64,000 bases of DNA from Dehalococcoidia bacterium UBA6803 (GTDB lineage: Bacteria > Chloroflexota > Dehalococcoidia > GIF9 > AB-539-J10): NCBI GenBank assembly GCA_002452795.1, contig DKFF01000008.1, positions 18,271 through 82,270 on the forward strand, written 5' to 3'. The notes beneath the pieces are model-generated. The model was not told the DNA's origin and ran no database searches. It saw only the letters and a program-made list of their open reading frames with translations. Shown here in pieces: positions 2,036-53,806 of the stretch (the first letter of the stretch is position 1; each line of letters starts with the position of its first letter). A program made the position numbers and the translations under genes.

Positions 2036-2047
2036 AGCGCCATCCTC

Positions 2048-3845: not shown

Positions 3846-3946
3846 ATGTATAACAGAATTATATTTTCGGGCATTCTAACATCCTCAGCGCATCACGGGC
3901 AAGGAAAAGCGTTATACGGGTCCTCCAAATAGCGTATAATCTAATA

Positions 3947-4414
3947 ATGCCTGATAAAAAAAGGGTCATTATTTACTGCGACGGCGCCTGCTCGGGCAAC
4001 CAGTACCGCACCAACACCGGTGGATGGGGGGCCATACTTAAATACGGAGATAAGATTAAGGAAGTCTATGGCGGAGAGCCCAATACCACCAACCAGCGCA
4101 TGGAGCTGACGGCCTGCATCAGGGCGCTGGAACAGATTAAATCCGGCGGATACGACATCGATATATACACTGACAGCGCCTACTTGGCCAACTGTATGCT
4201 GCAGAAATGGTATCTGAAATGGCAAAAAAACGGCTGGAAAAACTCCAAAAAGGAACCCGTGGAAAACCGCGACCTTTGGGAGCAGTTGATTACGTATCTC
4301 CCTTTACATAATATTGCTTTCCATAAGGTGGACGCCCATTGCGGTGATGAACTTAACGAGAGGGCCGACGAGCTGGCCAGACTGGGCATTGCCGGAGTAA
4401 AAAAGGCTTTCTGA
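3947..4414 (+). CDS. rnhA: ribonuclease HI
   Basis: 155 aa; IYCDGACSGNQ ... TNQRMEL ... TDSxY ... HKVDAHCGDELNERADELA. Confidence 0.9.
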   Translation: MPDKKRVIIYCDGACSGNQYRTNTGGWGAILKYGDKIKEVYGGEPNTTNQRMELTACIRALEQIKSGGYDIDIYTDSAYLANCMLQKWYLKWQKNGWKNSKKEPVENRDLWEQLITYLPLHNIAFHKVDAHCGDELNERADELARLGIAGVKKAF

Positions 4415-9874: not shown

Positions 9875-10058
9875 ATTTATACTAATTATTTATGTTAATG
9901 CATTGTAGATATATATAATAATAGCAATATTAAGCACGTTAATCCTGGTGAAGGAGGTAAAAATAACTTTAGAAATGGCATAGATAGTGAGATAAAAAGT
10001 GTAAAAAAATCCGAAGTTATCCACAAAACCGCATGATTTATCCACAAGGATATAGATA
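9875..10058. other. candidate oriC: AT-rich tract plus two perfect DnaA boxes (TTATCCACA at 10017-10025 and 10038-10046)
   Basis: Intergenic region between obg start and dnaA stop; 55-bp A+T-rich stretch (9875-9930) followed by two same-orientation consensus DnaA boxes 12 bp apart. Confidence 0.45.
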
Positions 10059-11423: not shown

Positions 11424-11663
11424 CCGTACCTAATCCATAATATAAATTTTTCACGGGCGCCAAAAAAGGGTAAAAAATCTCTCCTGGGAATTAAAGACGC
11501 AGACTTTTAACTTAATTAATAAAAGATTAGATTTAGCGTCTGCTGATTGTCTTCCGTGGCACCCCTCCCGAGAACAATGAATAGATTACCACAGCGGTCA
11601 TTTGGGCTGTCAATAGTTATTTTGACATAATGGGAAAAAATCTATAAATTTTACTTCGGTACG

Positions 11664-12599
11664 ATGCGCATCATATTTATGGGTTCAGCAACGTTCGCAA
11701 CGCCCTCCTTACAATCACTTATGTCAAACAAATACGACATAAGCGCTGTTTATACACAGCCCGATAAAAAGACCGGGCGCGGGCAGCAGTTAATGGCCAG
11801 TGCGGTCAAGCGGTATGCGCTTTCGCAGGGATTGAAAGTGATACAGCCGGAGACCTTCAAAGATCCTGCCGAAGTGGAAAACTTGAGGGCACTGAAGCCC
11901 GACCTGATCGTAGTAGCAGCCTATGGGCAGATCCTGCCTGAATCAGTTTTACAAATACCTGTATATAAGTGTATCAATATCCATCCCTCCCTGCTGCCCA
12001 GGTACAGGGGCCCTTCCCCTATAAGCGCGGCCATATTGAACGGAGATAATGTTACGGGGGTGACGATCATGCTGGTGGAGAAGAAAGTGGATAGCGGTCC
12101 TGTACTGGCGCAGAAAGAAACTAAAATTGCAGATGAAGATACAACGGAGACGCTGACGGAAAAATTGGCCTTACTGGGGGCAGCGATGTTAATCGAAGTG
12201 ATACCGGGCTGGATTGAGGGTAAAATACAGCCGAAGCCGCAGGATGAAAGCCGCGCCAGCCATACTAGAATGGCAAGCAAAGAAGACGGCAGGCTGAACT
12301 GGGAGCTCCCGGCAATTCAATTGTGGCGCATGGTCAGGGCTTATTACCCCTGGCCTGGTTGCTTTACAATCTGGAACAATGCCAGGTTGAAGGTGATCAG
12401 CGCGGTGCCTCTGTCGGGTACTGCTGGCGGGAAGGCCGGTGAAGTAATCGAGCTGCCGCGTGGCGCACCGGCGCGGGCGGCTGTACGAACAGGAAAGGGT
12501 TTGCTCGGCCTGGTAAAGGTGCAGTTTGAAGGAAAAAAAGAGATGCCGGTTGCAGATTTCGTGGCAGGCCACCGGGATTTTATCGGCTCAGTTCTTTGA
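11664..12599 (+). CDS. fmt: methionyl-tRNA formyltransferase
   Basis: 311 aa; MRIIFMGS ... formyltransferase N- and C-domains. Confidence 0.9.
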   Translation: MRIIFMGSATFATPSLQSLMSNKYDISAVYTQPDKKTGRGQQLMASAVKRYALSQGLKVIQPETFKDPAEVENLRALKPDLIVVAAYGQILPESVLQIPVYKCINIHPSLLPRYRGPSPISAAILNGDNVTGVTIMLVEKKVDSGPVLAQKETKIADEDTTETLTEKLALLGAAMLIEVIPGWIEGKIQPKPQDESRASHTRMASKEDGRLNWELPAIQLWRMVRAYYPWPGCFTIWNNARLKVISAVPLSGTAGGKAGEVIELPRGAPARAAVRTGKGLLGLVKVQFEGKKEMPVADFVAGHRDFIGSVL

Positions 12600-12661: not shown

Positions 12662-13363
12662 ATGATATTGTATTTGATATTAATGATACCGCCGCTTATC
12701 TTTATGATATATGCGCAGTTCAAGGTGAAGAACACCTATTCCAAATATGCCAAGATCGGCAACCACAAAGGCATCACGGGCGCACAGGCAGCAGCGCAGA
12801 TGCTCAGAGCCAACGGGATCAATATCCCAATAGAGACTGTAGCAGGCAAGCTGACCGACCATTACGACCCTGCCAAGAAGGTGCTCAGGCTGTCGCCGGA
12901 AGTGGGCGGGACGGCATCTGTGGCAGCTATCGGTATCGCCCTGCACGAGGTAGGCCATGCAGTGCAGCACCACACCAAATACGGCATGATGGGAATACGT
13001 ACATTCCTGGTCCCGGCAGCCAATATCGGCAGCAACCTCGGCTGGATATTCATCTTCGCCGGTGTGCTGCTGATGGGGTTTGGCGAGGTCTTCGCTGAAT
13101 TCGGCACACTGATAGCCATGATCGGGCTGATCCTGTTCTCGGCGGCTGTGCTGTTTACACTGGTTACGCTGCCGGTGGAATTCGATGCCAGCAACAGGGC
13201 CAGGCGTATGATGAAAGATACCGGCATACTGGTTGGGCAGGAGTACCAGGGGGCCAGCGCTGTGCTTTCGGCAGCGGCGCTGACTTATGTGGCAGCCATG
13301 CTGCAGGCAGTGGCCCAGCTCCTCTATTTCGGCCTGATGATTTTCGGCGTAAGACGGGATTGA
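12662..13363 (+). CDS. zinc metallopeptidase, YugP family (membrane Zn peptidase)
   Basis: 233 aa; HEVGHAVQH zinc motif and several TM helices. Confidence 0.7.
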   Translation: MILYLILMIPPLIFMIYAQFKVKNTYSKYAKIGNHKGITGAQAAAQMLRANGINIPIETVAGKLTDHYDPAKKVLRLSPEVGGTASVAAIGIALHEVGHAVQHHTKYGMMGIRTFLVPAANIGSNLGWIFIFAGVLLMGFGEVFAEFGTLIAMIGLILFSAAVLFTLVTLPVEFDASNRARRMMKDTGILVGQEYQGASAVLSAAALTYVAAMLQAVAQLLYFGLMIFGVRRD

Positions 13364-13440
13364 CATTTCAAATAGCGCTATAGTTGGGGCCAACCGCTTC
13401 TACGCCAGTTGGCCCTTTTTTTGTCACGCGGGCGGTCATA

Positions 13441-14250
13441 ATGAATAAGAAAATGAACAAGAAAATTCCTGAATTCAGCGAAGAAGAACTGGGCACATTC
13501 CAGGCGTTCCGGCGGATTATACAGCGTCTGCGCTCTCCGGACGGATGTCCCTGGGACAGGAAGCAGACCCACGTTTCGCTCAGACCCTACCTGCTGGAAG
13601 AAAGCTACGAAGTACTTGAGAGTATCGATAATAATGATATATCCAGCCTGAGTGAGGAGCTGGGCGACCTCTGGCTGCAGATCATGTTGCATTCACAGAT
13701 TGCAGAGGAGCAGGGTGAGTTCAAGCTGGAAGACGTGCTACGCAAGATCAATGCCAAGCTGATCTTCCGCCATCCCCACGTCTTTGGCGGTAAAGATGTA
13801 AAAGATGCCGAAGAGGTTTCGTTCAACTGGCAGGAGTTGAAAGGACGGGAGAAACCGGAAAACAGCTCGATACTGTCAGGTGTACCGAAGGAGATGCCCG
13901 CCCTGGCAGCGAGCCAGTCTCTGCAGCAGAGGGCAGCCTCTGTCGGCTTCGACTGGGACAAGTTGGATGATGTAATGGAAAAGCTGGTTGAGGAAGTTAA
14001 CGAGCTGAGGAATGCTGCCAGCAAATCTGAGCAGGAGAGTGAATTCGGTGATATCCTGTTTACACTGGCCAATATAGCGCGCCGTATGGATATTGAACTG
14101 GAAGCAGCCTTAAGGCAGACTAATGCGCGTTTTACCCGCCGCTTTAACTATATTGAACAAGCCTGCCATGCCAGCGGCGCAGATATAAAAAGCCTGACGT
14201 TGGCAGAAATGGATAGCCTCTGGAATGAGGCCAAGGAAAGACAGGAATAA
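13441..14250 (+). CDS. mazG: nucleoside triphosphate pyrophosphohydrolase MazG
   Basis: Tandem MazG domains (CPWDRKQTH ... EELGDLW); ATG at 13441 chosen over upstream GTG/TTG in the longer ORF. Confidence 0.8.
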   Translation: MNKKMNKKIPEFSEEELGTFQAFRRIIQRLRSPDGCPWDRKQTHVSLRPYLLEESYEVLESIDNNDISSLSEELGDLWLQIMLHSQIAEEQGEFKLEDVLRKINAKLIFRHPHVFGGKDVKDAEEVSFNWQELKGREKPENSSILSGVPKEMPALAASQSLQQRAASVGFDWDKLDDVMEKLVEEVNELRNAASKSEQESEFGDILFTLANIARRMDIELEAALRQTNARFTRRFNYIEQACHASGADIKSLTLAEMDSLWNEAKERQE

Positions 14251-14253
14251 GCT

Positions 14254-14331
14254 GGTCGGGGAGAGAGGACTCGAACCTCCGACCTCAGCGTCCCGAACGC
14301 TGCGCGCTAACCAGGCTGCGCTACGCCCCGC
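14254..14331 (-). tRNA. tRNA-Pro (anticodon CGG), CCA encoded
   Basis: Reverse complement CGGGGCGTAGCGCAGCCTGGTTAGCGCGCAGCGTTCGGGACGCTGAGGTCGGAGGTTCGAGTCCTCTCTCCCCGACCA folds as a cloverleaf; anticodon loop UUCGGGA; close to E. coli proK. Confidence 0.85.
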
Positions 14332-14415
14332 CCACGATATTATAGGCGGCTTTAACTTCTGCGGCAAGAATTGTAAACTAGAGGGCGAAGTGCTGTGACC
14401 TCTTGAAGGATCTAT

Positions 14416-15600
14416 ATGAAGTATTGCGTTTTAATCATTGATGGGGCGGCCGGCTGGCCGTTGCCCTGGCGGGGAGGGAAAACCAGCCTGGAACTGGCGC
14501 GTACGCCGAACATGGATGCTCTGGCCAGAGAAGGGATGCTGGGAATGGCCAGCACCGTGCCGACGGGGATGGAACCGAGCAGCGCCTGTGCTTGTATGTC
14601 GGTGCTGGGTTATGATCCTGTACTTTATTATCATGGGCGAGGAGCTATTGAGGCCCGGAGCATGGGAATTACTGTCGACAAAGGAGAAGCTGTTTTTCGC
14701 TGCAACCTGGTATCTGTGCAGGCGGGACAAATGGCAAGCTATAGTTCCGGCTATATCAGCAGTGGTGAAAGCCGGACACTCATTGCCTTCCTGAATGAAA
14801 AGATGGGAGGAGAGGAAGTGTTTTTCTATCCTGGAGTTGGCTACAGGCATATCTGCAAGATTAAAGGACACACAGAAACCCTGCGCGCCGTCTGTACTCC
14901 TCCTCATGATATTCCAGGACAAGAGATAAAGGAGTTTCTCCCTCGCGGCAGAGGGAGCGGCGTGTTGCGCGACTTGATGAAACGCTCAGCTGCCGTGCTG
15001 GAAGGACACCCTGTTAACCTGGAACGGCGAAAGAAGGGGGAGTTTCCTGCCTCTGCGATATGGCTTTTCTGGGGAAGCGGGCAAATACCGGATTTGCCTG
15101 CTTTTCGCAAAGTATATGGACTGGAGGCGTCTTTAACCTCCGGAGTTGATTTATTGCGGGGGTTGGCTAAAATGATGGAGGTTGAGGTATTGGACATAGC
15201 CGGCGTGACCGATGGCCCCGATAACGATTATGCCGCCCAGGCGGAGGAAGCGCTGCGAGCTCTTGCGAGGAAAGACATGGTGGTAGTCCATGTAGAAGCT
15301 CCCGATGAGGCAGGACATGCCGGTGATATTGATGCTAAAGTGGAAGCAATACAGCAGGTAGACCGAGAAATCGTGAGGCGTATTCGTGATTGGGAGGGAG
15401 GGCCTCTGCGCGTTTTAATTATGCCTGACCATCCAACTCCGATTGAATTTAGAACGCATGTAAGGGAGGAAGTTCCCTTTCTATTATGGGGCAGGGGAAT
15501 TGTCTCCAACGGAGGGCAGAGATTTACCGAAAGGGAGGCGAGGAGCACGGCTTTTCATGAGGGAAAAGGCTATAATCTTATGAGCAGGCTGGTGGAGTGA
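14416..15600 (+). CDS. ApgM-family cofactor-independent phosphoglycerate mutase-like enzyme (possibly the 'proposed homoserine kinase' subfamily)
   Basis: 394 aa; archaeal-type iPGM family signatures; sits directly upstream of aspartate kinase. Confidence 0.7.
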   Translation: MKYCVLIIDGAAGWPLPWRGGKTSLELARTPNMDALAREGMLGMASTVPTGMEPSSACACMSVLGYDPVLYYHGRGAIEARSMGITVDKGEAVFRCNLVSVQAGQMASYSSGYISSGESRTLIAFLNEKMGGEEVFFYPGVGYRHICKIKGHTETLRAVCTPPHDIPGQEIKEFLPRGRGSGVLRDLMKRSAAVLEGHPVNLERRKKGEFPASAIWLFWGSGQIPDLPAFRKVYGLEASLTSGVDLLRGLAKMMEVEVLDIAGVTDGPDNDYAAQAEEALRALARKDMVVVHVEAPDEAGHAGDIDAKVEAIQQVDREIVRRIRDWEGGPLRVLIMPDHPTPIEFRTHVREEVPFLLWGRGIVSNGGQRFTEREARSTAFHEGKGYNLMSRLVE

Positions 15601-41140: not shown

Positions 41141-41575
41141 GTGAAAACATATAGTACCAGAGCCAGAGATATACAGAGAGAGTGGCATGTGATTGATGCT
41201 CGTGGGCAGGCGCTGGGCAGGCTTGCTACCCGGGTGGCGGGATTGCTGATGGGGAAGCACAAACCGATTTATGCTCCCCACCTTGACACCGGTGATTGTG
41301 TGGTGGTGATTAATGCTGACAGGGTGTATATGTCTGGAAACAAGGCACAACAGAAGGTTTATTATCGTCATTCTGGATATCCTGGAGGCTTAAAAACAAT
41401 AGCTTTTAAAGATATGGCCGCAGCTCATCCTGACAGAGTCGTAGAACTGGCAATCAAGAGAATGCTGCCCCATAATCGTTTGGGCAGGGCAATGTTTAAG
41501 AAGCTCAGGGTTTATGCAGGTGAGGAACATCCTCATCTGTCTCAGCTGGCGGCGAAAGTGAAAGGTGATAACTAA
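41141..41575 (+). CDS. rplM: 50S ribosomal protein L13
   Basis: 144 aa. Confidence 0.95.
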   Translation: MKTYSTRARDIQREWHVIDARGQALGRLATRVAGLLMGKHKPIYAPHLDTGDCVVVINADRVYMSGNKAQQKVYYRHSGYPGGLKTIAFKDMAAAHPDRVVELAIKRMLPHNRLGRAMFKKLRVYAGEEHPHLSQLAAKVKGDN

Positions 41576-41970
41576 TGAGCACAGAGAGGTATGTTTGGGG
41601 AACAGGAAAGCGCAAAACTGCGATAGCTCAGGTAAAGCTTTTTGCCGGAGGAGGGGGAGTTATTGTTAATGACAAACCTTATGAGGAGGTTTTCCCTCGT
41701 CTGGAGCATCGTTGCAGGATAGAGGAGCCTTTTTTGGTCACCGAAACCGTGGGCAAGTTTCATGGCGTAGTTAAGGTGGTTGGTGGAGGGCTGAGCGGGC
41801 AGAGTGACGCCATTCGACATGGCATCGCCCGGGCACTGGCTAAGGAAAATGAGTTGCTTAAGCCTGTTCTGCGCAAAGAGGGGCTGCTTACCAGGGACCC
41901 CCGAATTAAGGAACGCAAAAAATACGGGCTTAGGCGTGCTCGCAAGGCACCACAGTATACCAAGCGATAA
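41575..41970 (+). CDS. rpsI: 30S ribosomal protein S9
   Basis: 131 aa ending ...RKAPQYTKR. Confidence 0.95.
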   Translation: MSTERYVWGTGKRKTAIAQVKLFAGGGGVIVNDKPYEEVFPRLEHRCRIEEPFLVTETVGKFHGVVKVVGGGLSGQSDAIRHGIARALAKENELLKPVLRKEGLLTRDPRIKERKKYGLRRARKAPQYTKR

Positions 41971-41991
41971 GAACCTATTGTTTTCGGGGGG

Positions 41992-42585
41992 TTGTCTTTG
42001 TCTGGAAGACGGGGAGAGAAAGGTCGCTTTTATCCTGGCAGGGATGATGTGGTTCTGGTGGTGGTGGATATGCAGGACAGCGTGCTGGCGGCTATGGAAG
42101 ATGGCGTAGCCAGACTGGTTAAAGACAACATGGGTGTCCTGATAGATTCCTTTCGTTTCATGAATATCCCACTGCTGATTACTGAACAGTATCCGCAGGG
42201 GTTGGGACGAACCGTCGCGACTCTTCGGGAGAAAATAGCAGAATTTTATTTGCCTGTCGAGAAAACGACCTTTAGTTGTTACAGACAGACGCACTTTCAG
42301 GAAAAATTGCAGAAAGAGGGAAGCCGACATGTGGTGCTGGCGGGGGTGGAAACGCATATCTGTGTTTTGCAGACAGCTCTGGATTTGCTGGATGCAGGGT
42401 ATGAAGTGAGTGTGGTTGGGGACGCCACCTGTTCACGCTATAAGTTTGACTGGCGAGTGGGGCTAAGAGAGATAGAACGGGCAGGCGGAGTAGTAACCAG
42501 CACCGAAGCCATAATTTTTTGCTTGCTCAAGGAAGCGGGAACTGCAGAATTCAAGGCTATTTCCCCTTTGATCCAGGGAAGGTAA
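41992..42585 (+). CDS. isochorismatase-family cysteine hydrolase
   Basis: 197 aa; LVVVDMQ ... VLAGVETHICVLQTALDLLDAGYEV. Confidence 0.7.
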   Translation: MSLSGRRGEKGRFYPGRDDVVLVVVDMQDSVLAAMEDGVARLVKDNMGVLIDSFRFMNIPLLITEQYPQGLGRTVATLREKIAEFYLPVEKTTFSCYRQTHFQEKLQKEGSRHVVLAGVETHICVLQTALDLLDAGYEVSVVGDATCSRYKFDWRVGLREIERAGGVVTSTEAIIFCLLKEAGTAEFKAISPLIQGR

Positions 42586-42639
42586 AAGCCACTTATAATG
42601 AAGGCAAATTAATGATGCCATCGTGGCGCTTGGCGGGCG

Positions 42640-43779
42640 TTAAGTTTTTATCCCGACGGTGATTTCTGTGCCTTTGCCCGGTTGCGATTTTATGGAGAAG
42701 GTGCCGCCGAGCAAGCGGGCTCGCTCCTGCATGCCGATCAGTCCCAGCTTGCCTTTGCTGGCAAATCCACCTGCCACTTCAGGCACCTTGAATCCTCTGC
42801 CGTTGTCGGCAATGGTCAAGTTGACTTTATCGGGAGCAAACTCGACCTTAACCAGTACCTCCGTTGCCATGGCATGTTTCCTGACGTTGCGCAGTGCTTC
42901 CTGGGCGATGCGGAATAAGGCCAGTTCGATCTCCGGTGGCAGGCGATAACTAGAACCGGTTGTCTCAAAACGTGTATTAATCTCTTTTTCTTCATTGTGA
43001 AATTTGTTTGTTAGGTTTACCAAAATTGGCGTTAGTCCCAGTTGGTCCAAGTCACCAGGGCGAAGTTCTTGTGCAAAGAAGCGAGCTTTTTTTGCTGTAT
43101 TGTTGATATTGCTTTGGAGTTGTTCCAATTGGGAAAAGATTTTCTCCGGTGCAAACTCTCTGTTTCCGATTAGCATGTCGATCTTCAAAGATATGGTTGT
43201 CAATTCTTGGAGGAAGGTGTCGTGTAACTCGCGAGCAATATACTTCCTTTCCCCCTCTTGGGCGCGGGTGATTTCTGCGAGGTAGAATTGCATATTCTCC
43301 TGCCTTTGTCGCTGCTCGGTTATATCTCTGGCTGTAGTCATAATGCCTATTATTTGCTCATTTTTCTTTATCAAAGAGGGTGCGGACTCGGTGATCATTT
43401 TTTCGCCGTTCTTTCTGAAGATCTCATATTCGTAGTAGCATTGCTTAATGCACCGATCCCTAAGCCATTTCTGTTGCTCTTTCATGAGGGATTCAAAGCT
43501 TTTCGGGGAGAGAAGGCGTGATACGTGTAGCCCGACCAGTTCTTCGGCCGTATTGTAGCCGAAGAGATCTACTGCTCGTTGGTTGACTGCAAGAATCATT
43601 CCCTCAAGGGTGCGAATGAAAATGACATAATTGGTTTGAGTGAAAATGCTTGAGTAGAGAGCCTTCGTAGTCGTGAGGAGCTTGCTCTTTCTTTGTAGTT
43701 CTTTCTGGAGGTGAAATATTTCTACAAGAGCCCTCTTTTTGCTGATTCTCCTGTTGGGTTTGAAAAAGTTAGTCCTCAT
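42640..43779 (-). CDS. cytoplasmic PAS-domain sensor histidine kinase (HisKA_3 / NarX-type)
   Basis: 379 aa; no TM segments; PAS region, H-box ARELHDTFLQ, HATPase_c with DNGRGF and G-box. Confidence 0.8.
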   Translation of the reverse strand: MRTNFFKPNRRISKKRALVEIFHLQKELQRKSKLLTTTKALYSSIFTQTNYVIFIRTLEGMILAVNQRAVDLFGYNTAEELVGLHVSRLLSPKSFESLMKEQQKWLRDRCIKQCYYEYEIFRKNGEKMITESAPSLIKKNEQIIGIMTTARDITEQRQRQENMQFYLAEITRAQEGERKYIARELHDTFLQELTTISLKIDMLIGNREFAPEKIFSQLEQLQSNINNTAKKARFFAQELRPGDLDQLGLTPILVNLTNKFHNEEKEINTRFETTGSSYRLPPEIELALFRIAQEALRNVRKHAMATEVLVKVEFAPDKVNLTIADNGRGFKVPEVAGGFASKGKLGLIGMQERARLLGGTFSIKSQPGKGTEITVGIKT

Positions 43780-44449
43780 GTTCGGTTACTTTAAAAATAT
43801 CGTCGAGTGCCAGCCAATTTTCTTTTAAGGCGTAAAGCACAGCCTCGGTGCGAGATCCGACTTTTAATTTTTTGAAAGTGTTTACCATGTGAGTTTGAAC
43901 AGTGCGTTCACTGATCACAAACTCCTCGGCGATTTCCCTGTTGGTTAACCCGCCACCTGCCAGTTTAAGTATTTCTAACTCGCGTGGAGACAATATCACG
44001 GATTTTTGTCCGGTTTTGGTAGCATTAACCACTAACTGATGTACGATTTGGCTGGCGGATTGAAAAGAAAACACCGCTTCTCCTGCATACACCATGCGGA
44101 TGGCATCGGTTAGCTTATTTATAGGAGAATTCTTTAACAAATATCCTGCTACTCCCGCCTCTAAAGAAGCTGAAATATATGACGCGTAGTTATAAGCGGT
44201 GAGTATGATGATAGCTGTCCTCGGACAAAATATTTTAATCTGCCGGGCGGCTTCGATGCCGCCAACGACAGGCATAGAAACATCGAGGATGACCACATCT
44301 GGCAACAGCTCCGTTGTTAAGCTGATTGCTTCTTCGGCAGTGGTTGTCTTTGCTACTATAAGTAAGTCCGCCTCTTTTTCTAGAAGAAGAGACAGTCCTT
44401 CTAAGACCAAAGTGTGGTCATCCGCTAAGAGAACTTTAATTTTCTCCAT
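43769..44449 (-). CDS. NarL/LuxR-family response regulator
   Basis: Start MEKIKVLLADDH (ATG 44447-44449, AAGGGG RBS); receiver domain plus LuxR HTH; overlaps the kinase gene by 11 nt. Confidence 0.8.
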   Translation of the reverse strand: MEKIKVLLADDHTLVLEGLSLLLEKEADLLIVAKTTTAEEAISLTTELLPDVVILDVSMPVVGGIEAARQIKIFCPRTAIIILTAYNYASYISASLEAGVAGYLLKNSPINKLTDAIRMVYAGEAVFSFQSASQIVHQLVVNATKTGQKSVILSPRELEILKLAGGGLTNREIAEEFVISERTVQTHMVNTFKKLKVGSRTEAVLYALKENWLALDDIFKVTEHED

Positions 44450-45015
44450 AATCAAGCCCCTTTTTGCTGAAGAATATGAACAAACTTTGCGGGAGGTTAA
44501 GTCTATTTCCATTGTAACATATGTTGTTTGAAGGTTTGCCTTCGAGTCGTTTGTGACGTCCAATTGTTAATTTATGCTTTGTATAGGGCAAGGTAGTGCC
44601 AGAAGGGGAGGGTGTTAATGCTACTGCTTGTTCAGGTTATGCGTGGACACAAGAGTTGATAGAGGCAGTGACCGAATGTGAGGTAGGGGAGGCCTTGGGC
44701 GAAGCATATGCTTCTCATGGCATGATATCGGTTGGTATATTATCATGGGGGATGCCAATCTGGCTGTGTTTAATTTATCTGTATTTGTTATGAGGTTGTA
44801 TGTATCGTGGTAAGTAGTTTTCTGGAGGTGGAAATACGTAGTTTGTCTGATATGAAGATTGTATTTGAGAGGATATACTTAAGTTGCTAATAAGAGGTGG
44901 TATCTGCGGGCGGTTATTTGGGTTATAAGAGATTTGGGCCCGGAGAGGAAACTGAAGATGTGTTGTGCATTTGAGTCGAGAGAATTTTAACGTAGAGAAG
45001 TTAAAGGAGGTAAAA

Positions 45016-47628
45016 ATGGCAACAGCAGTGGAAAAAATAATGAAAATGAACGAGAAAGAGGAAGGGAAGGAGTATTTACTGGACCCGGAGGAGGCGGGGG
45101 TAAAGCTGGATACCCCAGGTGAACCTACAAGTAAGGCATGGGCAGTTGTTACTCCGGAGATGTGGAAATTCAGGTTCTCAGTCGCAGACAAGATACAAGT
45201 TGATGAGCCGGATTATTTCGCTGATAAGGATGCCTATACAGATATGGGGCCGTTCATGGCAATGAAGGAAGCCTGTGACGAGAATCCGGAGGCTACAGTT
45301 GCGCGTATAGTTGCTGTGGCATTCGCAAAATCTCTTGACCGTCAACGTCTGCCAATTAGGCCATACGAGATGGTCATTGGCTTGTATTCCAGTGATGAGC
45401 ACGGCATGCCGGGAGATCCGCAAAAGCAGAACTGGCAGCAATTGGTGGCGAACTTTAAGAACGCGCCGGAAAGGATGATGTACTGGAAAGGTGACGAAAA
45501 AGTCAGGCTTTCCAAACAGGAGATGGATGAGCTCACAGCAAAGATAGGCAATAAATTTAATGCAGTGTCAAGAGTTGTTGGCAAACTGACGCCTGAAGAG
45601 CAGCACCTGTACTTTTGTCCTGAAGCTCCCGGGAGATACTTTGAAGCGTTTGGCTCTGTACAGCGTGCCAGTGCCGACCATGGCTGGTATATGAGGCTGG
45701 GCTGGAGAAAACTGGTAGAGATGAAGAAGGAGAAGCTGGGGGAGTACGAGAAGGAATTTGAGCGTGTCAAATTAGCTGAGCCACTTGACTATCACAAGAC
45801 TGATGAGATACAGGACAGGATTGATAACGCTAAAGCTAGCATCCTGGTTGGTGAGGCGGTCATCAGGTGGATAAAGAGGTGGGCAGAGGCAGCGAGGAAA
45901 GCTGCCCCTCAGATGCCCGACGAGAAGTCAAAATGGATAGCCGAACAGGCAGCAGCGAATTGTGATTGGGTCGCGGAGAACGCGCCCCGCACCTTCTGGG
46001 AAGCCGTGCAGATGTTCTGGCTTAGCTATTGTGTTTTTCGTGGTTTAGAATCCTGCCACCCTGGTGCATTCAAGCCGGATGATCTTTTATGGGAATGGTA
46101 TGAACGCGACGTGGTAAAAGAGAAAACGCTGGACAGGACTACAGCGGGCGAGATAATAGCTTGTTGGGCAGCTAAGTACCACGAAACGGCCGGATTTGGG
46201 CCTGCGAGGTTTGGTGGCTTGGGCAAGTCAGCTCAGGGAACCAGAGACTATACGGTCTGGACGATTGGTGGGCAGGATGGGCATGGTTGTGACGCCACGA
46301 ATGAGCTTACTCGTTTAATCCTGGATGTCTGGGACGGATACAGACTTCATTTTCCCGACCTTAAATTCAGATGGCACCCTGCGACTAAAAGGGACGATTT
46401 TAGAAGAGTCGTTGAGGTAGCCAGAACAGGATTGGGGCTTCCCTCTCTGCGGAACGATCCAATGGCCATTGAGACTCTTTTGAGCCAGTATCCGGGAGAG
46501 TTGACCCTGGAGCAGGCGAGACAGTGGGGAATCGTAGGCTGCAATACGCCGGGATGTATTGTTGATTCCAAAGGGCCTGTCAGGCGGGAGGTTTCTTATG
46601 CGGACATTGAGAAGGCGCCGGAATTCGCGCTCTTCAATGGCAGAGACCCGGAGCCGGGGTTCGAGTGGGTTAAGTCGATAGAGACCGGAGACCCCACCAA
46701 GTTTAAGGATTTTGAGGAGTTTTACCAGGCCTGGCTCAGGCAGTATGAATGGTTCGTGACCATGGAACTCAGGTACCGAAACAGGTTTCTTGAGGAACTG
46801 GAAAAGACAAACAAAATGCCGTTTGTAAGCCTTCTGTATAAATGCTGCATGGAATCAGGGCTGGATGCGCTTCAAGACCCTGCCATAGCAAGATTTAGTT
46901 TTCAGAGCATAGTCGGCTGGGTGGATTCGATAGATAGCCTCATAGGGGTGAAATACTGGGTTTACGATAAGAAGAAGTACACTATGGAGCAACTCCTGAA
47001 GGCATTGAAAGCTGACTGGGTAGGCTATGAGGACATGAGGCGGGATTTCCGGAACGCGCCCAAGTTCGGGAACGATGATGACTATGCCGATGAAATAATG
47101 GCAAGGGCAACCGACGACGTCTTTATAGTGCACAAGACAAAGACTCTGGACAGGAGAGGTTACCCGGTCTACCCCAATCAGCTTCCCGTAAGCCGTATGT
47201 TTCAGTCTGCTCCCATGGTAGGGGCATTGCCTAACGGGAGAAAGCGCGGTGACCAGCTGTGTGATGGAGGGATTAACCCTCATGCCGATTTTGATAAAGC
47301 CGGGCTCTGGGGAAGGATGAGGTCAGCCCTAAAGGTTGATCAAGGTAAAGCCAGGGCGTACATTTACAATCAGAGGGTTGATTATTCCTCGGTGGCAGGT
47401 GAGGTTGGTCTGGCTAAGTTTGCGGATTATTGCTGGGACAGCCTTGCGCAGGGGCAGACTCAGATGCAGTTCAACTTTGTCTCGACTGAAGTGTTGCGGG
47501 ATGCGCAGAAGAGTCCGGAGAAATATCCCTATCTTACGGTAAGGGTATCCGGCTATAATGCCTTCTTTACCGGGCTGCCTGTCTTTATGCAGAATGCGGT
47601 GGCAAGCCGCGTAGAGCAGAAATTGTAG
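45016..47628 (+). CDS. glycyl radical enzyme, uncharacterized subfamily (870 aa)
   Basis: ATG at 45016 with AAGGAGG RBS; C-terminal glycyl-radical motif RVSGYNAFF; Cys loop VGCNTPGCIV; PFL-fold conserved blocks throughout. Confidence 0.85.
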   Translation: MATAVEKIMKMNEKEEGKEYLLDPEEAGVKLDTPGEPTSKAWAVVTPEMWKFRFSVADKIQVDEPDYFADKDAYTDMGPFMAMKEACDENPEATVARIVAVAFAKSLDRQRLPIRPYEMVIGLYSSDEHGMPGDPQKQNWQQLVANFKNAPERMMYWKGDEKVRLSKQEMDELTAKIGNKFNAVSRVVGKLTPEEQHLYFCPEAPGRYFEAFGSVQRASADHGWYMRLGWRKLVEMKKEKLGEYEKEFERVKLAEPLDYHKTDEIQDRIDNAKASILVGEAVIRWIKRWAEAARKAAPQMPDEKSKWIAEQAAANCDWVAENAPRTFWEAVQMFWLSYCVFRGLESCHPGAFKPDDLLWEWYERDVVKEKTLDRTTAGEIIACWAAKYHETAGFGPARFGGLGKSAQGTRDYTVWTIGGQDGHGCDATNELTRLILDVWDGYRLHFPDLKFRWHPATKRDDFRRVVEVARTGLGLPSLRNDPMAIETLLSQYPGELTLEQARQWGIVGCNTPGCIVDSKGPVRREVSYADIEKAPEFALFNGRDPEPGFEWVKSIETGDPTKFKDFEEFYQAWLRQYEWFVTMELRYRNRFLEELEKTNKMPFVSLLYKCCMESGLDALQDPAIARFSFQSIVGWVDSIDSLIGVKYWVYDKKKYTMEQLLKALKADWVGYEDMRRDFRNAPKFGNDDDYADEIMARATDDVFIVHKTKTLDRRGYPVYPNQLPVSRMFQSAPMVGALPNGRKRGDQLCDGGINPHADFDKAGLWGRMRSALKVDQGKARAYIYNQRVDYSSVAGEVGLAKFADYCWDSLAQGQTQMQFNFVSTEVLRDAQKSPEKYPYLTVRVSGYNAFFTGLPVFMQNAVASRVEQKL

Positions 47629-47672
47629 CATCTCGCAGAGATAAGCGAGGGAGACTACCGCAACGAGAGTTG

Positions 47673-47712
47673 GCCGGTGTGGCGATCTCCGGTCGGGGGT
47701 TGCCACACCGGC
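47673..47712 (+). promoter_or_regulatory. intercistronic stem-loop between the GRE and its activase (GGCCGGTGTGGC ... GCCACACCGGC)
   Basis: 11-12-bp near-perfect inverted repeat with 18-nt loop; no U-tract; AAGGAGG RBS for the activase follows. Confidence 0.3.
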
Positions 47713-47755
47713 TCTGTGTAGCGGTGAGTATTTATGTAAAGGAGGTTGTCTGCTT

Positions 47756-48682
47756 ATGTCGATTGAGGCAATAATTAAGACTGTAGATGAGCATGCGGTT
47801 CATGATGGCCCGGGGGCGAGGGCGCTTGCTTTCATAAAGGGTTGCAACTTGCATTGTAAATGGTGTCAGAATCCGGAGCTCATAAAGTTTGAGCCCCAGA
47901 TATGGTTCCATAAAGCGTTTTGCAAAGGATGTGGTGTATGCGAAGCGGCATGTCCTGTTAAGGCTATTGATTTAAATGCAGACGCCATGCACAGAATTGA
48001 TAGAGAGAAGTGCCTGGGAATTGAATGCAGCAAGTGTGTTCGGGTATGTTCGTATAATGCATTGCAGACGGTTGGTGTTAAGATCACTGCCGAGGAACTC
48101 TGGAGGTGGCTGGCGAAGTATAAAAGTTTTTATCAGGGTTCAGGGGGAGGGATAACGCTCAGTGGCGGAGATCCTTTACATTCGCCGGATTTCTCGGCTG
48201 AGGTACTTGAGCTTTGTAAAAGGGACAATATACATACGGCTATTGAAACGAGTTTATATGCCAGTTACGACAATTTGTGGAAGGTGGCGAGGCACTGCGA
48301 CCTTATTCTGTGTGATATTAAGCACATGGACAGCAAAAAGCATAAAGAGGGGACGGGTGTATCCAACGAACTGATTCTTGAGAATCTTCAGCGGCTTAAT
48401 GCGGATTTTCCTGGCGAAATCGTGGTGCGGGTGCCACTGATTCCCGGATACAATGACGACGAAGAGAACATTCGCCAAACAGCGGAGTTTCTTTCTCCAC
48501 TGGAACGGGTAAAAGGGATAGACCTGTTGCCCTTCAATAATTTCCCCGTGACGAAATTCGAGGCGCTTGGTATAGACTGGGAGTATACGAACGTTCTCAG
48601 TCAAACGGACGAGCAGTTGAACAAGCTTCATGAAATAGTGAAACCTTATAAAGCTCATTGCACGGTAGGGGGGATGTGGTAG
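47756..48682 (+). CDS. glycyl radical enzyme activating enzyme (radical SAM, with two auxiliary ferredoxin-like [4Fe-4S] motifs)
   Basis: 308 aa; CNLHCKWC radical SAM motif; CKGCGVCEAACP and CLGIECSKCVRVC insert typical of non-PflA-type activases. Confidence 0.85.
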   Translation: MSIEAIIKTVDEHAVHDGPGARALAFIKGCNLHCKWCQNPELIKFEPQIWFHKAFCKGCGVCEAACPVKAIDLNADAMHRIDREKCLGIECSKCVRVCSYNALQTVGVKITAEELWRWLAKYKSFYQGSGGGITLSGGDPLHSPDFSAEVLELCKRDNIHTAIETSLYASYDNLWKVARHCDLILCDIKHMDSKKHKEGTGVSNELILENLQRLNADFPGEIVVRVPLIPGYNDDEENIRQTAEFLSPLERVKGIDLLPFNNFPVTKFEALGIDWEYTNVLSQTDEQLNKLHEIVKPYKAHCTVGGMW

Positions 48683-48742
48683 GCATTACGATTGTCTGAC
48701 AAATCGGATAACTGCTTTTCAGAGGTTCTCTTCCGTGCAGGA

Positions 48743-49816
48743 CTAAAGCTCACTCAGCCGTTTTTTCAGGTGGCCGATTGTTTTTACTGGAGTGGGGTCG
48801 ATTTCGTTCAACATTGCCAGGTAGTAACTTGTCCAGTCTCCGAAGAAGACCGTGCTCATCATCTGGCACAGTAGGCTTTTGCCTTTGCTGTCCACGATCC
48901 GGCGATCGACGCCACTTTTTCCCAAAAGCTCGTCGGTTATGTGGTAGCGTGCCAGGATGCGCTGGTGCAGGTCAGAAGAACGCAACATCACCACGAAGAG
49001 TTTTTTTGCCATTTCCCGGGGGAATTCATATCCGACTACGGCATTATGATTGAGCTCGGGGAAGGCTTCGTAAAAAGCCCAGGCTTTGCCGTTTTCGTTG
49101 AGTTGTCCTTTCCAGCGTCGGGCTACGGGAGAAAGAAAGCCTGCTCCATAAAGCACCGCTATTTTGCCGTAGAGACTGAGCGCTAACTTTTTGGCTGGAT
49201 TTTCCCGGAGGGGTACATTTTCCTGTAGCCTGCCGCGTAATTCCTCCAGCATTTGCACGGTTTCGCTGACATTTTCTTCCTCGTTGCCAGTAATTCCCAA
49301 TTTGCTGGCGAAGGCGAGGAGTGGGAAAAACCCCCAGCCCAGGGCGGCTCTGGGGGGAGAAATATAATTTATAGAGAAAACGGGAACGCCTGCCTCCTCT
49401 GCTGCCTCTCGCAAAGACCCACCCGTGGTGATAGCCAGTTTTTTGCAGTCTGTTTCCAGTGATTGAGAGAAGGCGGATAAAGTTTCCTCGGTCATGCCTG
49501 AATAACTTGCGGCGATGACCAGTGTTCGCTCATTGACAAAAGTGGGTAGACCATAATCCCTGTGAACGTAAATGGGAGCTCTGCTCGAAGCAGAAACCAG
49601 GCTGCCTAACAAATCACCGCTGATGGCAGACCCTCCCATCCCACAGATGACGATTTTATCGATGTCCGCATAATCAGCAGGTAGCTTGAAGTCACTGGCT
49701 TTTTGCCATGCCTCCAGGCACTGCCCGGGTAGCCCGTGCAGATGAGATGCCATGCCCTCTGTATCGTATTGCTTATATATGTCCTGATTATCCAGGTCTA
49801 CCATGTCCTTAAACAC
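48743..49816 (-). CDS. bifunctional phosphoglucose/phosphomannose isomerase (SIS-domain, archaeal type)
   Basis: 357 aa; SIS motif ICGMGGSAISGDL. Confidence 0.7.
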   Translation of the reverse strand: MFKDMVDLDNQDIYKQYDTEGMASHLHGLPGQCLEAWQKASDFKLPADYADIDKIVICGMGGSAISGDLLGSLVSASSRAPIYVHRDYGLPTFVNERTLVIAASYSGMTEETLSAFSQSLETDCKKLAITTGGSLREAAEEAGVPVFSINYISPPRAALGWGFFPLLAFASKLGITGNEEENVSETVQMLEELRGRLQENVPLRENPAKKLALSLYGKIAVLYGAGFLSPVARRWKGQLNENGKAWAFYEAFPELNHNAVVGYEFPREMAKKLFVVMLRSSDLHQRILARYHITDELLGKSGVDRRIVDSKGKSLLCQMMSTVFFGDWTSYYLAMLNEIDPTPVKTIGHLKKRLSEL

Positions 49817-51227
49817 CCGCTATCTTTCTGCCTTCGTCCAGCAGTTCCCTGACTTTCTCGGGGCTTTCGTCCTCTGCGTAGATTCTGACCAAAGGCTCCG
49901 TACCCGAGAAGCGAATAAGCAGCCAGGAATCTTCGGAGGTAAAAAAACGAAAGCCGTCGGTAGTATCCATCCTGAGCACTTTACTGCCCGCGATGGCCTG
50001 CGGCATGCTATCAGATAGTCGCTTGAGCATTTCTCCGCGGCTGTCCGGGGAGATATGAGTATCAATACGGTCGTAATAATGCGGGCCAACCTTACTGTAA
50101 AGGTAATCCAGAAGTTCGCCCGGGGTCTTTCCTGTTTTTACCATGAAATCCAGGAAGTAAAGCCCGGCCAAGAGGCCATCCCTCTCGGGAATATGCCCAC
50201 GGAAGCCGTATCCGCCGCTTTCTTCTCCTCCCACGAGGGCATTTTCCCGTATCATCAAGGGGGCAACCCACTTGAAACCTATCGGCGTTTCATAAACGGG
50301 AACAGTAAATATCTCCCCCAGGCGTTTCAGCATGCTGGTGCAATTTAATGACTTGATTATGGCTCCTCGCTCCCCGCGCACTTCCAGAAGATAAAGGGCA
50401 AGCAGGGCGAAAACCTGGTGCTGGTTCAAGAAATTTCCCTGCTCGTCTATTATACCCAGGCGGTCAGCATCACCGTCAGTGGCCAGGCCGACGGCTGCTT
50501 TACTATCGACAACCCGGATGGAGAGCTCCTCCAGGTTTTTGGCAATAGGCTCCGGCTGAATGCCGGGGAAAGAAGGATTTTGCTCTCCATGTATTTCGAC
50601 AAGCGTAGTCTCTCTGCCCTGCAGGAGATTTTTGAAATATCCATTGCCAGCGCCATACATGGAGTCAACAATGATCCTCAGTTTATGCCGCCTCAGTTCC
50701 TCTATGTCCACGAGTGTTTTTAGATGTTTCAGGTAGCTGATATCGGGGTCGAGATAATTGACTGTGCCCTGCTTCAGAGCATCGCCCAGATAAACTCGTT
50801 TGACTTCTTTGATGCTGGAGATACCGGCGATATTTTTCTCCACTCTGCGAGTGGTTTCGTCTGTGGCGCTCTCTCCCCTGGATAGCCTGAACTTAAAACC
50901 GTTCCACGAATAGGGGTTGTGGCTGGCAGTGATGATAATGGCGCCGTCAGACAGGGTATCAGGGACGGTATAGCTTACTACTGGAGTAGGAGTTGGCTTT
51001 GAACATAAGTATACTTTGATCTGGTTACCAGCGATTACTTCGGCGGCAGCCACTGCGAAATCCTTAGAGCCGAAACGAGTATCGTAACCGATCACCAGGC
51101 TTAGATCTTTGTCGGGATTTTCCTGTTTAAAGTAGCTTGCCACCCCCTGCGCGCAGATGCGCACGTTGTCAAAAGTGAAGTCCTCGGCAATGACTCCCCG
51201 CCAGCCATCGGTGCCAAACTTGATCAT
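49809..51227 (-). CDS. phosphoglucomutase/phosphomannomutase
   Basis: 472 aa; active-site TASHNP; four-domain PGM/PMM. Confidence 0.85.
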   Translation of the reverse strand: MIKFGTDGWRGVIAEDFTFDNVRICAQGVASYFKQENPDKDLSLVIGYDTRFGSKDFAVAAAEVIAGNQIKVYLCSKPTPTPVVSYTVPDTLSDGAIIITASHNPYSWNGFKFRLSRGESATDETTRRVEKNIAGISSIKEVKRVYLGDALKQGTVNYLDPDISYLKHLKTLVDIEELRRHKLRIIVDSMYGAGNGYFKNLLQGRETTLVEIHGEQNPSFPGIQPEPIAKNLEELSIRVVDSKAAVGLATDGDADRLGIIDEQGNFLNQHQVFALLALYLLEVRGERGAIIKSLNCTSMLKRLGEIFTVPVYETPIGFKWVAPLMIRENALVGGEESGGYGFRGHIPERDGLLAGLYFLDFMVKTGKTPGELLDYLYSKVGPHYYDRIDTHISPDSRGEMLKRLSDSMPQAIAGSKVLRMDTTDGFRFFTSEDSWLLIRFSGTEPLVRIYAEDESPEKVRELLDEGRKIAGV

Positions 51228-51233
51228 GCTCTA

Positions 51234-52421
51234 TTATAGTCCAGCGCTGGCTCTTAACGCTGCAACTCTATCTGTTTTCTCCCAGGGCAAATCAAGGTCT
51301 TCTCTGCCGAAGTGTCCATAAGCAGCGGTCTGCCTGTAAATGGGACGGCGCAGGTTCAATGTCCTGATGATTGCCTCGGGACGCAGATCGAAATGTTCAT
51401 TGATCAATCCAAGTATAGCCTCATCTGCTATTTTCCCTGTGTGGAAAGTTTCGACTGAGAGAGAAAGAGGGTGAGCTTTGCCAATGGTATAGGCAACCCG
51501 TATCTCGATGCGGTCAGCAATGCCTGCCGCCACTATGTTCTTGGCGATATACCTGGACATATAAGCGGCGCTACGGTCAACTTTCGTGGGATCTTTGCCG
51601 GAAAAAGCCCCGCCGCCATGATGGGCGGCGCTTCCATAAGAGTCAACGATGATTTTACGCCCGGTGAAGCCCGTATCGCTGACAGGCCCACCGATGACAA
51701 ATTGCCCGGTGCTGTTGATGAAAAATTCAGAACTGGAGTCCAGTAAATCAGCGGGGATGGCCTCTCTGATCACCTGCTTTATCAGGTCGTTTTCGATGGC
51801 GGCGTGATTTATTCCGGGGTCGTGTTGGGCGGCAATCACGACACGGGCAACTCTTTTAGGCTTGCCGTAGCAATACTCAATGGTTACCTGGGATTTGCCG
51901 TCAGGGCGCAGATATGGAACAATCCCCTCTTTTCTCACCAGGGCTAACCTTCGGCACAGTTTGTGTGCCAGGGAGATGGACAGGGGCATAAATTCCGGTG
52001 TGACGTTGTGCGCATAACCGACCATCATGCCCTGGTCGCCGGCACCTGTTTTGCTCAATTCGTCTTCCTGTTGACCGCCTTTCTTTTCCAGTGATTGGCT
52101 CACTCCCATATCTATGTCGGAAGATTGCTTCTTTAATGAAACGATTACGCCAACGGTACGATAGTCATAACCGTATTCTGGATTGGTGTAACCAGCATCC
52201 TTGATTACCTGTTTTACCACATCGGGGATATCCACATAACAGTTGCAGGAGATTTCTCCCAGGACTATCACCATGCCCAGTGTCACAGCTGTCTCGCAGG
52301 CGACGCGGGCGTAGGGGTCTTTTTCTAGCATGGCGTCCAGAATGGCGTCGGATATCTGGTCACAAAGCTTATCAGGATGTCCTTCAGTGACTGATTCCGA
52401 CGTGATTAAGCATGACTTCAT
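51234..52421 (-). CDS. metK: S-adenosylmethionine synthetase
   Basis: Start [18 protein letters not shown] (ATG 52419-52421); GHPDK and GAGDQG motifs. Confidence 0.9.
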
Positions 52422-52483
52422 TTCTTTAAAAGCGTCTTTGCAAGGTCCCGACATGATCATCCTCCTTGATTTATTATTTTATG

Positions 52484-53806
<1,323 letters not shown>

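Follow-up and report, generated by a model that had tools for sequence, protein, structure and literature searches.

An accessory glycyl radical enzyme cassette at the rpsI-pgi junction of a Dehalococcoidia genome: evidence for horizontal acquisition and a probable link to fumarate

Between the ribosomal protein genes rplM-rpsI and the ahcY-metK-pgm-pgi operon of Dehalococcoidia bacterium UBA6803, a two-component system, a glycyl radical enzyme (GRE) and a GRE activase are encoded, which raises the questions of whether these genes were inserted among housekeeping genes and which reaction their enzyme performs. The analysis was carried out on a stretch of 64,000 nucleotides (contig DKFF01000008.1, positions 18,271 to 82,270; hereafter the window), and positions refer to this window unless another locus is named. 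The reading favored here, with a probability of about 0.6, is that the locus is a horizontally acquired accessory cassette of four genes, and that its GRE is a fumarate-dependent enzyme related to the X-succinate synthases (XSS) and acting on a polar co-substrate.

Open reading frame (ORF) listing together with Pfam and NCBIfam scans showed that the cassette occupies positions 42640-48682, with the kinase and regulator genes on the minus strand and the GRE and activase genes diverging from them on the plus strand. All four genes proposed in an earlier note on this DNA were present at these positions with strong domain matches. The GRE gene (45016-47628, plus strand) encodes 870 residues with PFL-like (PF02901, 5e-97) and Gly_radical (PF01228, 8e-18) domains; its ATG at 45016 follows an AAGGAGG motif, and both the start and the motif are conserved in the sister species described below. 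The GRE-activating radical-SAM (S-adenosylmethionine) enzyme of 308 residues (47756-48682, plus strand) scored 314 bits against TIGR02494 (cutoff 174); its residues 30-37 form a CX3CX2C motif, and the protein also has a ferredoxin-like cluster insert. An activase gene adjoins the GRE gene in 24 related loci. The NarL/LuxR-type response regulator (43769-44449, minus strand) consists of REC and GerE helix-turn-helix domains (Response_reg 1e-23, GerE 4e-19). Its start was assigned to the ATG at 44449, which is conserved in the sister species, and not to the TTG at 44563, and the protein has 226 residues in both the NCBI and the JGI gene calls. The regulator gene overlaps by 11 nt with the gene for a PAS sensor histidine kinase of the class that partners NarL-type regulators (42640-43779, minus strand; PAS_9 1e-11, HisKA_3 2e-12, HATPase_c 8e-14). 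Because no transmembrane or hydrophobic segment was detected in the kinase (maximum KD19 1.13), it is predicted to be cytoplasmic and soluble. Positions 42586 and 48742 are the exact intergenic boundaries of the cassette segment. The left flank is formed by rpsI (41575-41970, the end of rplM-rpsI) and a gene for an isochorismatase-family, YcaC-like cysteine hydrolase (41992-42585, plus strand; Pfam Isochorismatase 1e-30), and the right flank by pgi (48743-49804, minus strand), the end of the ahcY-metK-pgm-pgi operon converging on the cassette.

Whether the cassette was inserted was addressed with a PGI-anchored scan of species-representative genomes, in which the window proteins were mapped onto 80 loci from other Dehalococcoidia and Chloroflexota. 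The ahcY-metK-pgm-pgi operon was widely conserved among these loci, and rpsI-rplM-truA was convergent with pgi at a distance of at most 10 kb in 38 Dehalococcoidia loci. Of the 38, 17 have a gap between pgi and rpsI below 300 bp and one has a gap of 508 bp; 13 fall into the range of 765-1115 bp and 7 into that of 4.6-7.7 kb. Homologues of the four cassette proteins or of the isochorismatase were found at none of these junctions. The ancestral Dehalococcoidia state is a direct convergent junction of rpsI and pgi, and the 6.8-kb filling in the window (41971-42639 plus the cassette) is lineage-specific. The accessory insertion proposed in the earlier note was therefore supported by the 38 loci lacking the cassette, 17 of them with rpsI abutting pgi, and by GRE orthologues spread across phyla. 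Conservation at this position throughout the lineage together with housekeeping-like composition, which the note had named as the contrary pattern, was clearly not found as far as conservation is concerned. The note had also described both flanks as core housekeeping genes; this description holds for rpsI and for pgi-pgm-metK-ahcY but not for the isochorismatase gene, which has no counterpart at this junction in any of the 38 relatives and is largely lost from the sister species. The isochorismatase gene was never seen beside the GRE in the other contexts of the GRE family, and it is probably part of the variable segment and not of the functional cassette.

The larger gaps between pgi and rpsI hold genes unrelated to the cassette, indicating a hotspot of variable gene content at this junction. 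The cargo comprises an M48 peptidase, a YgjP-like peptidase, a TPP enzyme with a Zn-ADH, an EamA transporter, a surface protein of about 1080 residues and a 720-residue protein with a C-terminal dCTP-deaminase-like domain (locus L058, about 13075-15240). Cargo was located in L058, in L016/L021/L040 and in L078/L086, and the 720-residue protein is possibly defence-related.

The shift in GC content or codon usage that the earlier note had suggested looking for was not decisive. The GRE gene has a GC content of 0.506. Its codon distance of 0.086 is among the lowest in the window, and no gene of the region is closer to the host in codon usage. A mildly low GC content was seen for the regulator (0.431) and the kinase (0.463) only. 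No integrase, transposase or flanking repeats were detected in 41900-48800. Among the marks of a genomic island, patchy distribution and variable location were observed, and tRNA adjacency was seen for the sister-species cassette (tRNA-Met), but integrase, transposase, direct repeats and deviant composition were not. The host-like composition, the lack of mobility genes and repeats and the Chloroflexota type of the kinase and regulator would also suit a cassette that was ancestral at the rpsI-pgi junction of Dehalococcoidia and was lost repeatedly, with no insertion at all. Such a history is scarcely credible in view of the absence of the cassette from 38 of 38 informative loci with a clean junction of less than 300 bp in 17, of GRE orthologues in other phyla whose 77% identity exceeds the value of about 60% for pgi from different Dehalococcoidia genera, and of a sister species that holds the cassette at another locus.

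A search for the same cassette elsewhere, also proposed in the earlier note, identified the four-gene unit only in one sister species and in other samples of the species itself. The latter have the same arrangement as the window (e.g., contig DJWI01000007.1 of the metagenome-assembled genome (MAG) GCA_002440925.1). In the sister species, represented by MAG CSMAG_2448 with core proteins 89-96% identical to those of the window, the cassette lies on another contig (JAUWOK010000024.1; locus L176, in which 11139-12242 is the region at the kinase-side end). The gene order there is phosphoribosyltransferase, aminoacyl-tRNA synthetase, ThyX, MFS and SurE, then activase, GRE, regulator and kinase, and then a short remnant, tRNA-Met(CAT) and the 3′ end of the 23S rRNA. 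The remnant of 131 bp directly follows the kinase gene, is 78% identical to 41926-42056 of the window and consists of the last 45 nt of rpsI and the first ~65 nt of the isochorismatase region; the rest of the isochorismatase gene is deleted, with only about 65 nt of its 5′ end left. This arrangement indicates that the four genes travel together, that they once adjoined rpsI and the isochorismatase gene, and that the isochorismatase gene is dispensable. The relocated cassette thus appears to have taken along a piece of its former flank. The pgi contig of the sister species (L022) stops inside pgi, and its rpsI-pgi junction lies outside this comparison.

The two copies of the cassette have diverged more than their host genomes. 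Synonymous divergence (dS) between the window and L176 was 0.37-0.82 across the cassette versus 0.14-0.24 for pgm, metK and ahcY (49809-53740 of the window against L022), i.e., two to four times that of the flanking core genes in the same genome pair. The kinase orthologues are 70% identical. The higher dS indicates that the two cassettes diverged before the core genomes did, which fits exchange or recombination of the cassette, or its separate acquisition, in the two species. The low ratios of nonsynonymous to synonymous divergence (dN/dS; GRE 0.10, activase 0.13) indicate that both genes are under purifying selection and functional.

The distribution of the GRE itself points to horizontal transfer. 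About 72 database proteins were at least 44% identical to it, nearly all of them metagenomic, and orthologues of 74-81% identity were found in wholly different neighbourhoods. One orthologue of 77% identity shares its contig with a gene for an EF-P that is 91% identical to that of Moorella (Bacillota), a second one, also at 77%, belongs to a MAG labelled Deltaproteobacteria, an orthologue of 67% adjoins an Mla outer-membrane lipid system, and a group of 57% identity occurs in Synergistaceae. Cross-phylum identity of 77% in the GRE, compared with about 60% between the window pgi and that of other Dehalococcoidia genera, argues for horizontal transfer. In locus L006 (10310-15984), the operon of a 78% GRE orthologue is followed by a C-terminal fragment of a Mu transposase, a HEPN/DUF499 protein and AbiEii, and the GRE cluster in that genome is located in a mobile or defence-rich region.

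The regulatory half of the cassette has a different affinity. The named homologues of the kinase are from Chloroflexota and Dehalococcoidia, and no two-component system was found beside other members of the GRE family, where IclR or GntR regulators are encoded instead. In Dehalococcoidia, pairs of a PAS kinase and a NarL/LuxR regulator are placed beside accessory catabolic genes such as reductive dehalogenase genes. The cassette pair resembles them in its soluble PAS/HisKA_3 kinase, its REC-GerE regulator and its orientation divergent from an accessory catabolic operon, but differs from the dehalogenase-linked pairs in being located beside a GRE operon. It looks as if a foreign GRE and activase pair had been wired to a lineage-typical regulator pair, and the two-component system would be the element that controls the GRE operon.

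The identity of the GRE was analyzed by sequence, profile and fold. None of the curated NCBIfam GRE equivalogs was reached, all scores being 3- to 20-fold under cutoff; the best ones were HypD (316 bits), sulfopropanediol dehydratase (HpsG, 297), CutC (253) and HpfG (233) versus cutoffs of 1000-1100. Pyruvate formate-lyase models also scored far below their cutoffs (TIGR01255, 42 bits versus 994; PRK09983, 183 versus 1109), and the active-site cysteine is preceded by glycine (Gly508-Cys509), with no Cys-Cys pair. Searches against PDB sequences with phmmer gave 336 bits for MasD, 275 for the BSS alpha subunit and 257 for HypD, and a profile of 40 family sequences gave 478 bits for MasD, 415 for BSS, 392 for CutC and 390 for HypD. 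The AlphaFold2 model of the GRE (predicted local distance difference test (pLDDT) 89.5; predicted TM-score (pTM) 0.91) superimposed on GRE structures with TM-scores of 0.85-0.89, and in Foldseek its TMq was 0.85 for both MasD and BSS versus 0.77-0.83 for all other GREs. Identity to the alpha subunits of XSS (BSS and MasD) was about 33%. The marks of the GRE superfamily, namely the barrel, the glycine domain with the family-invariant R843-V-S-G846-Y and a nearby activase, were all observed. Taken together, the assignment of the GRE to a clade without characterized members that is closest to XSS is supported but not proven. No characterization of this clade was found in the literature, and a Guaymas Basin survey has reported GREs that group with no characterized class (PMC6258724). 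The 'faeA' genes of Atribacteria (PMC6776118) form a separate BSS-like clade (55% identity) with beta and gamma subunits.

The Cys loop and the arginine that would clamp fumarate agree with this placement. The catalytic Cys509 does not vary in the family and corresponds to BSS Cys493 and MASS Cys477. It is located in a G-C509-N-T-P loop, and the corresponding loop is C-M-S-P in XSS and C-[VI]-E in eliminases and isomerases (PMC13450708). The C+2 position was Thr in 33, Ser in 5 and Asn in 2 of the 40 family members and was never Glu. Arg524 at C+15, which aligns with BSS Arg508, was invariant in 40 of 40 members, and the neighboring Arg523 aligns with MASS Arg492; BSS Arg508 or MASS Arg492 and the amides of the Cys loop are the only fumarate contact common to the two solved XSS (PMC12358834). 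By alignment, the co-substrate pocket differs from that of BSS. BSS Ile384 is replaced with Ser or Ala and Phe385 with Gly or Ala, and the position of BSS Leu711, a residue of the toluene pocket (PMC4848970), is occupied by Arg727 in 13 of 13 members of the window's subclade. Elsewhere in the family this position is M, L, W or F (Q, H or Y in three), in subclades linked to β-oxidation or mutase genes. The first 65 residues of the GRE (45016-45210) are family-specific, with invariant P37, W42, V45, P47, W50, F52, R53, D58 and K59; this N-terminal segment is ordered in the AlphaFold2 model (pLDDT 87-95), and no solved GRE aligned with it in the profile search.

The genomic context of the GRE family was analyzed by clustering neighboring ORFs in 63 non-redundant loci and naming the clusters by Pfam and NCBIfam. 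In the subclade of the window, defined by at least 65% identity, the neighbors were the TRAP transporter DctPQM (9 loci), IclR (5), a PNPOx-like protein (4), DUF4125 (3), a very divergent MmgE/PrpD-family protein (3) and malic enzyme (3), and the alpha subunit of a class I fumarase was encoded beside the GRE in 4 loci, in 2 of them together with the beta subunit. In the Synergistaceae group at 57% identity, the order is DctPQM, GRE and activase, and one lineage continues with class II fumarase, malic enzyme, MFS and GntR. Both fumarase types scored above curated cutoffs (class II, 774 versus 665 bits; class I alpha, 415 versus 276; class I beta, 261 versus 238). Recruitment of two non-homologous fumarases beside the same GRE indicates that fumarate is connected with its reaction, and this is strong genomic evidence that fumarate would be either the substrate or the product of the GRE. 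The DctP neighbors scored under the canonical dctP cutoff, and prediction of the ligand of the TRAP binding protein from PDB matches failed because the best match reached only 78 bits, the isethionate-binding protein 8t9t being among the best matches.

MoxR/BssE-like, PNPOx-like and DUF4125 genes also occur near members of the GRE family, and PNPOx-like, DUF4125 and BssE-type ATPase genes are unexplained accessory genes in limonenylsuccinate synthase clusters (PMC12583861). In distant subclades (45-65% identity), the neighbors were methylmalonyl-CoA-mutase-like, thiolase/DUF35, acyl-CoA dehydrogenase and SDR genes, a context that resembles the pathways downstream of alkylsuccinate synthases. 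Two or three tandem or close GRE paralogues were observed in distant-subclade loci L113, L118, L120, L121, L127, L134 and L137.

Among characterized systems, two groups of GREs are closest to the enzyme. Like the XSS (BssA/TutD and MasD), the GRE has a ten-stranded barrel, an R-V-x-G-Y glycine loop, a glutamate-free C-x-[ST]-P loop and Arg at C+15, and its family clusters share with XSS clusters the PNPOx-like, DUF4125 and MoxR/BssE-like ATPase genes and a ferredoxin-type activase. Unlike XSS, no genes for beta, gamma or delta FeS (iron–sulfur) or rubredoxin subunits lie nearby, the equivalents of Trp613, Asn615 and Gln707 are missing, the pocket residues are smaller with Leu711 changed to Arg, and the subclade has TRAP, PrpD-like, fumarase and malic enzyme partners in place of CoA-transferase and β-oxidation genes. 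With the eliminases and isomerases (HypD, CutC, glycerol/propanediol dehydratase, IslA, HpsG, HplG and YbiW/PflD), the GRE shares its fold, its size, the single subunit and an activase with extra ferredoxin-like clusters, and the sulfonate systems among them also have TRAP transporters. The GRE family differs from this group in lacking the glutamate of C-x-E and in having Arg at C+15, and its sequence, profile and structure scores to the group are lower than those to XSS.

Several observations weigh against the favored reading. Identity to XSS is only about 33%, and the profile margin over the eliminases is modest, BSS scoring only 23 bits above CutC. BSS Trp613, Asn615 and Gln707 correspond to Phe629 (invariant), Ser/Thr631 and Leu723; the secondary fumarate contacts also differ between BSS and MASS themselves (PMC12358834). 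The argument from Arg727 is one of sequence alignment only. A conserved Cys-rich ORF (35-130 residues) within 2.5 kb of the GRE was absent from the 63 family loci and the window, in which only antisense shadows were seen, so that no gene for a beta or gamma FeS subunit lies nearby; the alpha subunits of BSS and MASS are insoluble without their beta and gamma subunits (PMC13450708). The N-terminal segment of the GRE might, speculatively, stand in for the missing small subunits. The TRAP transporter, fumarase, malic enzyme and PrpD-like genes of the relatives are absent from the 64-kb window, and the layout of regulator, importer, GRE, fumarase and malic enzyme in those relatives is easier to read as a catabolic route that produces fumarate than as a fumarate-consuming one. 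The same holds, on the side of acquisition, for the base composition without a foreign sign and the lack of mobility genes and repeats.

The lack of an FeS small-subunit gene and the substitution of Arg727 for a hydrophobic pocket residue lead to the expectation of a polar or anionic co-substrate, and suggest that the partner of fumarate would be an organic acid and not a hydrocarbon. A rival assignment is that of a conventional alkyl- or arylalkyl-succinate synthase that activates hydrocarbons. In its favor, XSS are the closest relatives with solved structures, oil-sands tailings and hydrocarbon-degrading methanogenic cultures are the source of many homologues, and the 45-65% subclades are placed beside mutase-like, thiolase/DUF35 and acyl-CoA dehydrogenase genes. 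Such a function is nevertheless improbable for the enzyme of the window: beta and gamma subunit genes were not found near the 63 family loci, downstream CoA or β-oxidation genes were found neither in the window nor in its subclade, an arginine aligns with the hydrophobic pocket position, and identity to BSS and MasD is 33% versus 55-61% to BSS for recognized new XSS (PMC6776118, PMC12583861). The XSS covered in a 2026 review of the superfamily (PMC13450708) are all hydrocarbon-adding and all equipped with small subunits. A GRE of the HypD, CutC or diol-dehydratase type, performing 1,2-elimination or dehydration on a hydroxylated or sulfonated acid, would account for the best NCBIfam matches being HypD and sulfopropanediol dehydratase, for profile scores only modestly below those of XSS and for the TRAP transporters, which accompany known sulfonate-cleaving GREs and whose DctP has 8t9t among its best PDB matches. 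It was judged very unlikely, since the NCBIfam scores remain far under the 1000-1100-bit cutoffs and the C-x-E glutamate is replaced with Thr, Ser or Asn in all 40 family members (PMC13450708).

More weight, if still on the unlikely side, was given to a GRE that works in the opposite direction, as a fumarate-releasing lyase or catabolic enzyme on a substituted succinate or related acid that is imported by the TRAP transporter, with fumarase and malic enzyme leading on to pyruvate. Operons with regulator, TRAP, GRE, activase, in some cases the PrpD-like gene, fumarase and malic enzyme form a self-contained route to pyruvate; CoA ligase, CoA transferase and β-oxidation genes are missing from the subclade; DctP, being below the canonical cutoff, may not import C4-dicarboxylates; and Arg727 would suit an anionic leaving group. 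The energetics speak against it. Retro-addition that breaks a C-C bond to release fumarate is endergonic by about 30-40 kJ/mol (a rough estimate from standard formation energies), and cleavage of a tricarboxylate to fumarate and a monocarboxylate was set aside on this rough thermodynamic estimate. No radical is required for the elimination of a heteroatom from succinates, a reaction of polar enzymes of the aspartase/fumarase type. The characterized relatives, furthermore, all run toward addition (PMC13450708). For these three reasons, addition to fumarate would be preferred over its release, and we infer that fumarate is the substrate. Within the favored reading of a fumarate-dependent enzyme with a polar co-substrate, it is tentatively proposed that the GRE represents a new reaction class in the XSS lineage, in which a stand-alone enzyme without small subunits would couple a polar or anionic metabolite other than a hydrocarbon to fumarate or would rearrange the adduct. 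A candidate reaction would be the addition of an α-hydroxy or other organic acid to give a tricarboxylate, which could be processed by the PrpD-like enzyme.

A mechanism can be proposed on this basis. The cytoplasmic PAS kinase would sense an intracellular signal and phosphorylate the NarL-type regulator, which would act on the 566-bp control region and turn on the GRE-activase operon. The activase would then place the radical on Gly846 of the GRE, from where it would move to Cys509. The Cys509 thiyl radical would take a hydrogen atom from the polar co-substrate, and the resulting substrate radical would add to fumarate held by the Cys-loop amides and Arg524 as in XSS, after which the product radical would regain hydrogen from Cys509. 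If the fumarate chemistry is true, radical addition to fumarate would be extended beyond hydrocarbons, and a simpler single-subunit enzyme would become available to enzymologists. A new reaction class would, in addition, mean a novel route of carbon assimilation or degradation in fermenting and syntrophic anaerobes, including Dehalococcoidia, a class noted for its streamlined genomes and for organohalide respiration. The insertion itself is an ordinary kind of event, and the new part is its cargo, a GRE lineage without a characterized member. The cassette illustrates the capture of a foreign radical-enzyme module at a conserved junction under a lineage-typical PAS two-component switch, and the rpsI-pgi junction can be recognized as an accessory-cargo hotspot when Dehalococcoidia genomes are scanned.

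The divergent control region between the regulator and GRE genes (44450-45015, 566 bp) was aligned with that of the sister species. Blocks beside both start codons are conserved, and a stretch of about 220 bp inside it (44594-44815) has no counterpart in the sister species. A 10-nt palindrome, GAAGCATATGCTTC, was observed at 44701-44714 within this stretch. A small-subunit role was considered for a 65-residue ORF at 44596-44793 that is called by both NCBI and JGI. It was rejected: the ORF contains three Cys, is of low complexity and lies in the stretch missing from the sister species, and it is probably not a gene. Scans for promoters and terminators gave background level only, and an Rfam scan of 41500-49500 gave no match. 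An inverted repeat (47673-47712, plus strand) with 19-nt arms that are 84% complementary and a 2-nt loop lies in the 127 bp that separate the GRE gene from the activase gene. The predicted mRNA hairpin may uncouple the levels of GRE and activase by processing or attenuation and so set the ratio of the two proteins.

Two further features of the window lie away from the cassette. Positions 1-4000 are GC-rich (0.56-0.62 versus about 0.50 elsewhere) and contain two ORFs with no Pfam match as well as genes at 2048-3845 (minus strand) for a CdhD/AcsD-like protein and a pterin-binding, AcsE-like protein, both of the Wood-Ljungdahl corrinoid module. The dnaA gene is located at 10059-11423 (minus strand), with gyrB (6208-8127), obg and fmt nearby, and the cumulative GC skew has its minimum at about 9-10 kb, beyond which it climbs steeply. 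The origin of chromosome replication is probably located at 9000-12000 of the window, about 32 kb from the cassette.

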